Positions 24,030-51,209 are shown, counted from the stretch's first letter. The stretch: 64,000 nucleotides of DNA from an uncultured Gammaproteobacteria bacterium (GCA_964599625.1 CAZRGC010000001.1:244959-308958), one strand, 5' to 3'. Made by a program: numbers and translations. The notes: generated from the letters alone by a model not told the origin.

Positions 24030-24033
24030 TTTG

Positions 24034-24104
24034 AGCCGATGGGGGGAATCGAACCCTCGTCCGCGGTTTACGATACCGCTGCTTTACCACTAAGCTACAT
24101 CGGC
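24034..24104 (-). tRNA. tRNA-Thr (anticodon CGT)
   Basis: Reverse complement folds. Acceptor GCCGATG/CATCGGC, D-arm GCTT-AGTGGTA-AAGC, anticodon stem GCGGT/ACCGC with loop ATCGTAA, T-loop TTCGATT. One A-C mismatch in the T-stem. No encoded CCA. Confidence 0.75.
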
Positions 24105-24275
24105 TTGTGAAGCCTCTTTCGCTCGGCTTCGCCTAAAGCTACATCGGCGCGTCGAAAATAGCTTCGTTTTCTGCAAAAAAATGATTTTTTGCATCATTAC
24201 TGCGCTTTTTCTCCTTTCAAAATCGTACCGATTTTGTTCCGAATTATAACACGCGGAGAGTGTGATGAATTAAAA

Positions 24276-49623: not shown

Positions 49624-50259
49624 ATGGACGGAAGCTCAAAAATTGACCACGATCCCACATTCGATGTGGTGGAGATTGTAAAAATCAAATACAAAAATAT
49701 TGAGTTCAACGTTTCTGCTGGTGATATCATGAAGGAATTTAGAAGTTCAGATGCCATAGTTATTCCTTCGTCCCCCGAGCTTGACTTGCAAAGTGGTGTA
49801 ATCGAAAACCTGGTTGATGATGAATATGGAGATGGGCCATTTAAGGCACTCGCGGCAAAGAAAAAACAGATGAGCATACCGGATCATGTTCCGATGTGTA
49901 CCGCCGTCGATGCAATTTATCAAGGAAAAGACTTTGTATTTGTAAACATTCAACCCCCGTATGATGAGGATGATCAAACTTTTGAAGGTGTTAGGGAGTC
50001 TGCATTCAACTGTTTCAAAGAAGCCAACTTCAACGAGGCTCAATCCATAGTTGTTCCTGCACTGGGTAATGGTATGTGGCACGTTCCTATAAATGAAAGT
50101 GTTTCGGCTATTGCCGAAGCAGCAAAATCTTTTATAGATGAGATGACTAAGGAGGGTAACGAACCTGCACTAAGAAAGATAAGTATTGTTTTATATAAAC
50201 CCAAGACTGAAGACGGACCATTGATTAAAGACTCCGTAATCAAACTATTTTCCCAGTGA
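49624..50259 (+). CDS. Macro-domain protein (ADP-ribose binding/processing)
   Basis: DAIVIPSSPELDLQSGVIENL and IVVPALGNGMWHVP correspond to the Macro-domain ligand-binding loops. TTGACC-16-TAAATT promoter upstream. Confidence 0.65.
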   Translation: MDGSSKIDHDPTFDVVEIVKIKYKNIEFNVSAGDIMKEFRSSDAIVIPSSPELDLQSGVIENLVDDEYGDGPFKALAAKKKQMSIPDHVPMCTAVDAIYQGKDFVFVNIQPPYDEDDQTFEGVRESAFNCFKEANFNEAQSIVVPALGNGMWHVPINESVSAIAEAAKSFIDEMTKEGNEPALRKISIVLYKPKTEDGPLIKDSVIKLFSQ

Positions 50260-50298
50260 AGCTTCAATACAAACGGTATCGACGAGACATATATGACA

Positions 50299-50538
50299 TT
50301 AAACTAAATTGTGTTTTTTGATAAACGCTCGGCCCGACCCAGACTTGAGATATTTTTCAAATTTAAAAGCTGTAATCTTTTCACTAAAAGCGAAATACGA
50401 AATCAGTTTCAAGGGTTTTAGATTTCTTGTTGTATTAATTTGGCCAGAATTGTGGCGTTTTAACCTGTCCTTTAAGTTATTTGTACAACCAATGTAGGTC
50501 CGTCCATTTGAACAAAACAGTATGTAAATATAATACAT
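50299..50538 (-). CDS. GIY-YIG nuclease-family small protein (YhbQ/UPF0213-like, 79 aa)
   Basis: YYIYILFCSNGRTYIGCTNNLKDRLKRHNSG is a GIY-x10-YIG ... R ... N catalytic core. No additional DNA-binding domain. Confidence 0.7.
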   Translation of the reverse strand: MYYIYILFCSNGRTYIGCTNNLKDRLKRHNSGQINTTRNLKPLKLISYFAFSEKITAFKFEKYLKSGSGRAFIKKHNLV

Positions 50539-50612
50539 ATTGTTTCAGTATATCCGCTTTCGCTCTGACGGCGGGTAAACCTCGCCGTAGTCGAGCTTCA
50601 GCGAGACGAAGG

Positions 50613-50903
50613 CGGGATCGACGAGACTCGAACTCGCAACCTCTTCCGTGCTAAACCCAAGTCGGGTTTTGGACTATCTCATCATCCAGTTTTTCAACTT
50701 AGGACGCCAGGTATATAGTCTCTACACATTTATCCTTCGATTACGCTCAGGACTTACAGCCCTAAACATCATCTAGAAATTTAGCTCGGGATTCTCTTCT
50801 TTCGAAGTATTTTCCGAATTAGCCTGGTTTTACATCCCGGTATTACTACCAGGAGCTGCCACTTTTGACAGGGAAGCGCTCTAGCCAATTGAGCTACGAC
50901 CCC
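50613..50903 (-). tRNA. tRNA-Asp (anticodon GTC) interrupted by a 217-nt group I intron in the anticodon loop
   Basis: 5' exon (50868-50903) is GGGGTCG-TA-GCTC-AATTGGCTA-GAGC-G-CTTCC-CTGT. 3' exon (50613-50650) is CAC-GGAAG-AGGTT-GCGAG-TTCGAGT-CTCGT-CGATCCC-G. Joined, they give a canonical 74-nt tRNA with anticodon loop CUGUCAC, as in bacterial tRNA-Asp. Confidence 0.65.
50651..50867 (-). ncRNA. Group I self-splicing intron (217 nt) within tRNA-Asp
   Basis: 5' exon ends in U, pairing with internal guide GCAG 8 nt into the intron (P1 with U.G). The intron ends in G. Core elements R-like GUGUAGAGACUAUA and S-like GAGAUAGUCCAAA are present, with GACUA/UAGUC able to form P7. Size is similar to the smallest known tRNA introns. 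Confidence 0.6.
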
Positions 50904-50913
50904 AGATTTATCT

Positions 50914-50989
50914 GGGTATACAAGGCGAATGCCTTACGACCCCTTTTAGCTTCTAAAAGGGTATACAAGGCGAATGCCTTACGACCCCT
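50914..50989 (-). repeat. Two tandem 31-nt direct repeats (gggtatacaaggcgaatgccttacgacccct), separated by a 14-nt palindrome, immediately upstream of tRNA-Asp
   Basis: Each repeat ends with tacgacccc, the reverse complement of tRNA-Asp nt 1-9 (GGGGTCGTA). Each contains the hairpin aaggc-gaat-gcctt. The spacer ttttagcttctaaaa is itself palindromic. Confidence 0.6.
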
Positions 50990-51209
50990 AACTCTGAGTA
51001 TTTTATCACGGTACAAGCAAATTTCCGAGTGGCAAGCTTTGCTCACCAATAATAGTCTTTGGCAGCGTTAAGTTTTCACCTTGCGTTTGGTAAACATTCA
51101 GGCCGAAGTTTTTTTATCCTATAACTTGATTTTCTACACAATAAGGGGTAAAATTTGGCCTTAGTTTTTAATTGCACATTTCAAGAAAATTACGCGAAAG
51201 GACATATCT

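Follow-up and report, generated by a model that had tools for sequence, protein, structure and literature searches.

The question raised by this locus is why the start of a tRNA gene should be repeated, together with a small hairpin, upstream of the gene itself. Within the 64,000-nt stretch of DNA analysed here (all of it referred to as the window), a reading made from the sequence alone had reported two identical 31-nt units, each continuing from the first nine nucleotides of tRNA-Asp into an AAGGC-AUUC-GCCUU hairpin, with the nine nucleotides occurring three times, and all of this was borne out. The two 31-nt copies (50914-50944 and 50959-50989) are 100% identical, hairpin 1 (AAGGC-ATTC-GCCTT) is found in both, and the 9-mer GGGGTCGTA has three sites, at 50895, 50935 and 50980, and no other in the window (0.16 expected, with 0 of 100 shuffles reaching three). 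All motifs and structures are read in tRNA sense, which is the minus strand. The unit proper comprises 30 of the 31 nt, base 50989 being a flanking base shared by coincidence, and its makeup at 50988-50959 is GGGGTCGTA-AGGCATTCGCCT-TGTATACCC. Each unit is thus a composite of tRNA-Asp nucleotides 1-9 fused to a 21-nt leader core (hairpin 1 plus GUAUACCC), and that core is typical for the tRNA-Asp of this genus.

Even at a tolerance of 3 mismatches the 30-mer GGGGTCGTAAGGCATTCGCCTTGTATACCC has just two sites in the 64-kb window (0 expected from 100 shuffles), and no further copy was found in the window at that tolerance, in 163 related loci or in viral contigs, so that across these collections the units do not have the copies beyond the locus that a common dispersed repeat, the refutation named by the sequence-only reading, would show. 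Tandem Repeats Finder reported nothing at the repeats, Rfam gave no match on the units, and an exact-pattern scan of JGI metagenome contigs for the leader pattern GCCTTGTATACCC-N8-16-GGGGTYGTA gave no match. The features of the locus are as follows.

51024 to 51067, minus strand: remnant of a PD-(D/E)XK endonuclease gene, with its last 8 codons (..AAKDYYW) and stop at 51043-51067 and the conserved 3'-UTR block AGCTTGCCACTCGGA at 51024-51038
51000 to 51009, minus strand: extended -10 box GTGATAAAAT, colinear with the TGGTAAAAT promoter elsewhere and followed after 11 nt by the distal 9-mer
50959 to 50989, minus strand: distal unit, with the 9-mer at 50980-50988, hairpin 1 at 50967-50980 and GTATACCC at 50959-50966
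50944 to 50958, minus strand: spacer S1, TTTTAGAAGCTAAAA, forming with CCC (50959-50961) and GGG (50941-50943) hairpin 2 (9 bp, loop AAG)
50914 to 50944, minus strand: proximal unit, identical to the distal unit, with the 9-mer at 50935-50943, hairpin 1 at 50922-50935 and GTATACCC at 50914-50921
50904 to 50913, minus strand: spacer S2, AGATAAATCT, the native 10-nt leader, common to the intronless strain L001
50868 to 50903, minus strand: 5' exon of tRNA-Asp(GUC), 36 nt, ending at the U of the anticodon GU|C
50651 to 50867, minus strand: probable group I intron without an ORF, 217 nt, starting CAAAAGUGG and ending UUUAG
50611 to 50650, minus strand: 3' exon of tRNA-Asp, as given by ARAGORN with introns
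50299 to 50538, minus strand: ORF for a GIY-YIG nuclease of 79 aa, downstream of the tRNA (context, outside the repeat)
50278 to 50288, minus strand: GTCTCGTCGAT, an 11-nt repeat of tRNA 3' sequence found at 50617-50627, bracketing the GIY-YIG cassette with the tRNA

Along the minus strand the order is therefore the -10 box GTGATAAAAT (51009-51000), 11 nt, unit 1 (50988-50959), S1 (50958-50944), unit 2 (50943-50914), S2 (50913-50904) and then the tRNA, beginning GGGGTCGTAGCTCAATTGG at 50903. The 14-nt palindrome reported between the units holds as a 14-nt gap if the units are counted as 31 nt, but structurally it is a 15-nt spacer within a 9-bp hairpin. A second palindromic spacer, AGATAAATCT, which the earlier reading had missed, lies between the proximal unit and the real tRNA, and together with CCC (50914-50916) and G1-G3 of the tRNA (50901-50903) it makes a hairpin 2 of 7 bp with loop AA. 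In both cases hairpin 2 is formed by leader CCC pairing with G1-G3 of the next 5' end by way of a palindromic spacer. The two units of the window are identical at 30 of 30 positions, yet their spacers, TTTTAGAAGCTAAAA and AGATAAATCT, are unrelated.

The tRNA-Asp(gtc) gene itself (50611-50903, with a 217-nt intron) was found by ARAGORN with introns allowed; default ARAGORN did not detect it. The Rfam group I intron model RF00028 aligned over its full length to 50655-50883 (39.3 bits, E 2.5e-8, in a 1-kb search in which the gathering score of 50 was not reached), and an Rfam search at the gathering score did not find the intron. The insert, CAAAAG...TTTAG, follows ..CCCUGU, and strains L001, L006, L007 and L008 have uninterrupted CCCTGTCACGGAAG at this place, so the insert shows a precise presence/absence polymorphism, its absence leaving an intact tRNA, with U before the 5' splice site and G as the last intron base, as expected of such introns. 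Intron-allowed ARAGORN miscalled several orthologues as tRNA-Ala(tgc) or tRNA-Stop and misplaced the intron (loci giving trouble were L019, L040, L042, L045, L046, L098, L099 and L103).

The adjoining gene for a PolX-family polymerase places the host, an ultra-small uncultured CPR bacterium, in Patescibacteria, Microgenomates/Woesebacteria (best species representative 83% aa identity). The tRNA-Asp gene lies directly upstream of the PolX gene in most of 80 related genomes and carries an intron in about 11 of them. Contigs encoding an identical neighbouring lipoprotein were used to define haplotypes of the locus, and three were found. Haplotype 1 (L001, L006, L007, L008) is of the same species, its flanks having 99.1% and 97.3% nucleotide identity to the window, and has an intronless tRNA-Asp with one leader module and no copy of the 9-mer, the leader reading ..TTATATAAT-TACCTGTTACC-AGGC-TAA-GCCTTGTATACCC-AGATAAATCT-tRNA. 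Haplotype 2 is the window. Haplotype 3 (L003, L004, L009) has the window sequence from the distal unit outward, with an ORF of 135 aa where the window has 39 nt (window 51076-51114 compared with L004 117-566). The contigs of L004 and L009 begin inside the unit and, because an assembly at k=31 breaks at a repeat with two contexts, haplotype 3 strains carry at least two units too.

The sequence that haplotype 1 has in common with the window begins within the hairpin 1 loop (window 50926) and is taken up again at 51115, everything between these points having been replaced. The right-hand breakpoint is common to all three haplotypes, at window 51115 (CCTATAACTTGATTTTCT), just upstream of the divergently transcribed lipoprotein gene, which suggests that this may be a recurrent recombination boundary. 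Although these strains are 97-99% identical, their versions of the locus differ as a mosaic; in this comparison across strains, which had been proposed as a check on the repeats, the intronless strain has a single leader module and no 9-mer copy.

The position of the distal 9-mer is explained by comparison with other species. The promoter was placed by homology to about 40 endonuclease-tRNA junctions; a promoter and terminator scan of the locus had returned nothing on the tRNA strand. In other species the TGGTAAAAT promoter follows or overlaps the stop codon of an endonuclease gene, that stop codon typically lying inside or right before the -10 box (TGG TAA AAT). The order endonuclease C-terminus, 3' UTR, -10 box, leader of ~10 nt and GGGGTCGTA is colinear in the window, L004, L096, L021, L090, L031 and L162, and the consensus of the junctions is C-terminus, optional UTR block AGCTTGCCACTCGGA, TG(G/A)TAAAAT, about 10 nt and G(G/A)GGTCGTA. 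After GTCGTA the window, L004 and L090 continue with AGGC.. (the leader module), and the other junctions with the D-arm GCTCAA. Over 111 loci the -10 box most commonly lies 9-11 nt from tRNA-Asp +1, and its distance to the distal 9-mer is 11 nt in the window, 10 nt in L090 and 8 nt in L020, where an 18-nt remnant of the 3' end of the endonuclease gene is left (GACTTTTACTGTTAAAAT, 16 of 18 identical). Because it is located exactly at the tRNA start of other species' endonuclease cassettes, the distal 9-mer is, on this sequence comparison, most probably a stump of the tRNA displaced by leader reiteration. A promoter within the units, with TATACC as -10 box, was considered and rejected, as the conserved final T is missing and L090 has GAATACCC. 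Of the promoter or processing signals that the units had been proposed to be, the promoter lies upstream of the distal unit and outside the units, whereas a role in processing is consistent with the covarying hairpins in a predicted leader of ~90 nt described below.

An intact gene of 135 aa corresponding to the remnant is present in strains L003, L004 and L009. The L004 ORF matches PF11645 (E 6e-19, score 68.8, cut-off 26.1) and, over its full length, PDB 2OST (E 6.5e-6; database title 'Putative endonuclease'), which we take to be the structure of I-Ssp6803I, and its relatives are named 'group I intron-associated PD-(D/E)XK endonuclease' at NCBI. Six PolX-anchored genomes have a homologue directly ahead of tRNA-Asp and co-oriented with it, and a survey of PF11645 genes upstream of tRNAs (metagenome loci L096-L160 plus L031, L037, L046 and L061) found that in about 50 of 65 metagenome loci the gene is followed, 3-60 nt downstream, by a tRNA of the same orientation. 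The closest relatives of the endonuclease adjoin tRNA-Asp with the intron present or absent, and remoter ones lie 3-9 nt from tRNA-Pro or beside tRNA-Arg, Ala, Thr, Glu or Tyr; as the gap to tRNA-Pro is only 3-9 nt, that tRNA would be co-transcribed with the endonuclease gene. From these arrangements PF11645 appears to be a family of tRNA-gene-associated selfish genes, extending beyond its single known intron-encoded member. A tblastn search for longer endonuclease remnants upstream of L020, L017, L034, L021, L010 and L001 gave nothing significant.

Among 72 genome loci (L010-L089), an intron was found in 4 of 6 with the endonuclease gene compared to 7 of 66 without it (Fisher p=0.004). Together with the sporadic presence of the gene among strains, this co-occurrence is indirect evidence for a putative site-specific cleavage of alleles that lack the endonuclease or the intron. 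Many endonuclease-positive loci are intronless, though some (L037) share the anticodon-arm sequence. The suggestion that the repeats relate to intron homing or mobility is upheld in so far as the array is on a haplotype with the intron and an endonuclease gene or its remnant, but this is an association only, and endonuclease-plus-intron loci of other genera are without units. No unit arrays were found beside the closer endonuclease relatives L161-L163 and L167-L169, and endonuclease and intron occur together without units in at least 15 other species, and the array is therefore dispensable for homing or splicing.

The 3' side of the same tRNA looks like the site of a second nuclease cassette, to judge from its ORF and its bracketing copies, with the GIY-YIG gene putatively targeting the tRNA 3' end. 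An exact-protein look-up of the GIY-YIG ORF returned no record. L006 and L007 have 60 nt in place of this ORF, L162 has a GIY-YIG gene bracketed alike, and a copy of the 3' end follows after 64-75 nt in L090 (19 nt) and in L010 (18 nt). A 211-aa ORF beside the cassette (49624-50259, plus strand) has a weak, sub-threshold match to the Macro domain (E 0.004).

Partial copies of a tRNA 5' end were also seen elsewhere. In the window, the 5' end of tRNA-Thr(CGU) (24104-24033, minus strand) is repeated exactly over 13 nt (GCCGATGTAGCTT, 24148-24136) 44 nt upstream, the copy being followed by a 31-nt insert containing a hairpin (region 24033-24148, minus strand); strain L166 retains the copy, but there a -10 box, TGTTATAAT, is 20 nt upstream of the copy and not ~97 nt. 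A looser form of the same architecture (tRNA 5'-end copy, small AAGC..GCTT-type hairpin, complement of the tRNA 5' end, short spacer) is present in other Microgenomates at L017, L020, L021, L034/L035 and L051, with L017 duplicating 18 nt (8 of leader and 10 of tRNA) and L051 17 nt of a tRNA-Gly.

A two-unit array was found in L090/L091, a related species whose lipoprotein is 72% identical and whose endonuclease is 70% identical; the order there is endonuclease gene, TGGTAAAAT, 10 nt, two units and an intron-containing tRNA-Asp. Unit 1 of L090 is GGGGTCGTA-AGGCT-TAAC-AGTCTT-GAATACCC with spacer AAATCAGATTT, and unit 2 is GGGGTCGTA-AAACC-TTAAC-GGTTTT-GTATACCC with spacer TTATAAAATAA, so that its units have diverged (stems AAGGCT/AGTCTT versus AAAACC/GGTTTT). 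L010, which is free of both endonuclease and intron, has AAGGCA-GAGT-TGCCTT-GTATACCC-AAGTTACTCTT-tRNA. None of the four units that bear a 9-mer (two species) has a change in the 9-mer or in AUACCC, the surrounding intergenic DNA being unalignable.

Minimum free energy folds gave hairpin 1 plus hairpin 2 in 6 of 6 units. The stem and loop of hairpin 1 are variable in sequence, and G-U pairs occur on the tRNA-sense strand only, in helix 1; in helix 2 every pair (100%) is Watson-Crick, and three positions vary among AU, UA and GC. In a structural alignment (N-padded and hand-registered, a MAFFT alignment having been out of structural register), 95.5% of cells pair and 6 pairs are changed on both sides, compared to at most 61% pairing in slid controls. 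The covariation score was reached by 0 of 500 shuffles, a count biased towards structure as it comes from six hand-registered units of three species. Within that set pairs are kept by compensatory changes, as in a conserved structured RNA, and the covariation argues for a probable constraint at the RNA level. A hairpin across -1/+1 as a general trait of Microgenomates tRNA leaders was rejected, such hairpins being found at 5 of 299 tRNAs compared to 33 of 1495 control positions (2.2%); all 5 are leader-module loci.

We consider the best explanation, to which we give a probability of roughly 55%, to be that the array, at a hot spot of homing, is a pre-tRNA leader that was generated by recombination, is transcribed and is under structural constraint, any function being putative. 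A twice-reiterated module of 'tRNA stump plus leader' would lie between the promoter of an endonuclease cassette and the intron-bearing tRNA-Asp. The leader module (hairpin 1, GUAUACCC and palindromic spacer) would be the native tRNA-Asp leader of the genus, and on the endonuclease/intron haplotype this module plus tRNA nucleotides 1-9 would have been reiterated, with the promoter-proximal 9-mer as the stump of the tRNA start that belonged to the cassette promoter. The leader module without the 9-mer occurs in alleles lacking both endonuclease and intron. The array may have originated by illegitimate or unequal recombination at the 9-mers as the locus was repeatedly broken and repaired in homing. 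Simple tandem duplication is excluded as its origin because the spacers differ, being unalignable between identical units. Two origins would fit: alleles that differed in their spacers may have recombined unequally or illegitimately, or gene conversion may have acted on the homologous part of an old duplication. Nine bases are very little homology for unequal crossing-over, and the 30/30 identity of units with unalignable spacers needs gene conversion or a recent inter-allelic event. Recombination scars at the tRNA 5' end are the best-supported of the several suggestions made by the sequence-only reading, given the mosaic locus, the distal 9-mer at the tRNA-start position relative to the imported promoter, and the identical units with unrelated spacers.

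Because the promoter of the cassette lies upstream of the distal unit, the units would be transcribed from it as part of a 5' leader of ~90 nt; where transcription starts, where RNase P cuts and which hairpins form in vivo are predictions from sequence. Each unit would fold into two hairpins, the upstream 9-mer being an alternative partner for the leader CCC, and RNase P would remove the leader at the true +1. The structural constraint suggests that the leader may matter for folding, processing or stability of the precursor. In a more specific reading, the leader would be a switch in which the ..AUACCC 'anti-5'' sequence pairs either with the real tRNA G1-G3 or with an upstream decoy, the decoys timing the availability of the acceptor strand during transcription and self-splicing, and the whole being inherited as a block with endonuclease and intron. 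Hairpin 2 would here mask the RNase P site and the 5' strand of the acceptor, and this would be a kind of switch undescribed in CPR bacteria; we regard it as improbable, though not negligibly so.

Other explanations have to be weighed against a constrained leader. The units could be relics of tandem tRNA-Asp copies, such as one carried along with the endonuclease cassette, whose middle (D arm, anticodon arm and the greater part of the T arm) has been lost, perhaps once the endonuclease had cut an intronless copy. Left over would be the 5' strand of the acceptor, a hairpin and the 3' strand of the acceptor (..CCC), the CCC/GGG pairing then being acceptor-stem complementarity. The distal 9-mer at the tRNA start position would fit such relics, as would several other loci: the L020 insert AGCGGAAGCTTGGCGCCCTC can be aligned with two parts of the tRNA at that locus, the T-loop and the acceptor 3' strand (15 of 20, p=0.02), the 17-nt 5' copy at L051 (tRNA-Gly) is followed by sequence aligning to the tRNA 3' half (p=0.02), and L021 reads -10 box, GTAGCT (tRNA nucleotides 7-12), ATCCCC, second -10 box, tRNA. 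At the locus studied here, however, and at its nearest counterparts, similarity to the tRNA beyond nucleotides 1-9 is no better than in shuffled sequence (p of 0.42 for the window, 0.14 and 0.77 for L090 and 0.10 for L010), the leader core occurs without the 9-mer in L001 and L010, where it behaves like a leader rather than a truncated gene, none of 111 loci was found to have two intact tRNA-Asp genes in tandem, and five different spacers that are all perfect palindromes are left unexplained, which makes this origin doubtful in our view. A purely neutral origin, which we rate as a minority possibility, would have repeated double-strand breaks near the tRNA 5' end repaired by microhomology joining and fold-back (snap-back) synthesis, duplicating the junction and leaving palindromic filler, with templated correction keeping the hairpins perfect. 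The Watson-Crick-only pairing of hairpin 2 (all 22 variable pairs, with centres of 2-5 nt) is also expected, free of selection, from templated quasi-palindrome correction or fold-back repair, and the unalignable spacers between otherwise identical units, the remnants of the endonuclease to which the units of the window, L090 and L020 are linked, and the sporadic occurrence of similar single 5' copies at other tRNAs (6 of 299) are all in keeping with repair. What such repair does not predict is that the two-unit layout, the 9-mers and G(U/A)AUACCC persist across species whose flanking genes are only ~70% identical, or that hairpin 1 contains a G-U pair along with compensatory replacement of GG/CC by AA/UU, both typical of selection at the RNA level.

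A site acting at the DNA level, whether for binding, decoying or immunity towards the endonuclease or as an att-like recombination site for an integrase-type element, is very unlikely. PD-(D/E)XK homing endonucleases recognise pseudo-palindromic targets, as with I-Ssp6803I; the units do co-occur with the endonuclease haplotype in the genus, and the tRNA 3' end is also duplicated around the GIY-YIG cassette. The palindromes, though, differ wholly in sequence among units and so offer no conserved protein site, close relatives of the endonuclease (66-70% aa) function in unit-free loci, and the target expected by analogy would be the intron insertion site in the anticodon loop, not nucleotides 1-9; integrases or recombinases are absent from the ORF and Pfam lists of the neighbourhood, and only 31-36 nt lie between the 9-mers. 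Least credible of all are a mini CRISPR array, a dispersed REP/MITE repeat or a repeat-encoded peptide. The layout is repeat-spacer-repeat, and mechanical ORFs cross the repeats (50865-51071 on the plus and 50894-51049 on the minus strand), but unit periods of 45 and 40 nt, and of 43/44 nt in L090, break the reading frame, the window (up to 3 mismatches), the 163 related loci and the viral contigs gave no further copies, and two repeats only, with palindromic spacers of 15 and 10 nt, bear out the earlier statement that this is not a CRISPR array.

The constrained leader favoured here can be set beside several known systems. Like the partial tRNA duplications of att-type or accretion sites, the locus has exact short copies of a tRNA end beside an intact tRNA, strain-variable and in series, and the 3' side of the same tRNA, with its 11-19-nt 3'-end copy beyond a small cassette, is like those systems too. 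Unlike them, the units copy the 5' end, and only 9 nt of it, there is no integrase, the 31-36 nt between copies are the gene's own leader and not cargo, and the copies lie downstream of the promoter, inside the predicted transcribed leader. The arrangement of endonuclease and intron resembles the collaborative homing described for phages (PMC3984707). The two elements co-occur here (72 genome loci, Fisher p=0.004, as above), but that model covers endonuclease and intron, repeat arrays are not part of the described systems, and many of the endonuclease-positive loci found here have no intron. I-Ssp6803I is a PD-(D/E)XK endonuclease encoded within a cyanobacterial tRNA-fMet group I intron, and the gene studied here is like it in belonging to PF11645 and in having as host a tRNA gene whose anticodon loop is interrupted by a probable group I intron; it differs in being free-standing and directly upstream of the tRNA, its stop codon in or beside the tRNA promoter, with 8 codons left in the window. 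Like structured tRNA leaders removed by RNase P, the array lies between promoter and +1, has hairpins and would presumably be removed at +1. We know of no described leader with exact copies of the tRNA's first nine bases and a covarying hairpin across the RNase P site, and our literature searches returned no description of such units.

For annotators, the locus is a warning that default tRNA finders miss or misname these intron-containing tRNA-Asp genes, and it draws attention to a family of endonuclease genes almost always abutting tRNA genes. If the explanation given here is true, a single tRNA gene of a Microgenomates bacterium records layered invasion by selfish elements, in that an endonuclease gene has been built into its promoter, a group I intron interrupts the anticodon and the 3' end adjoins a GIY-YIG cassette. 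The host gene would have stayed intact while its 5' boundary was repeatedly rebuilt, the tRNA start being duplicated and the old one left as a stump in a structured leader. This leader RNA, with covarying hairpins spanning the predicted RNase P site, would have an effect on precursor folding that is testable in vitro, and the locus as a whole would be a testable case in CPR bacteria of something like collaborative homing.
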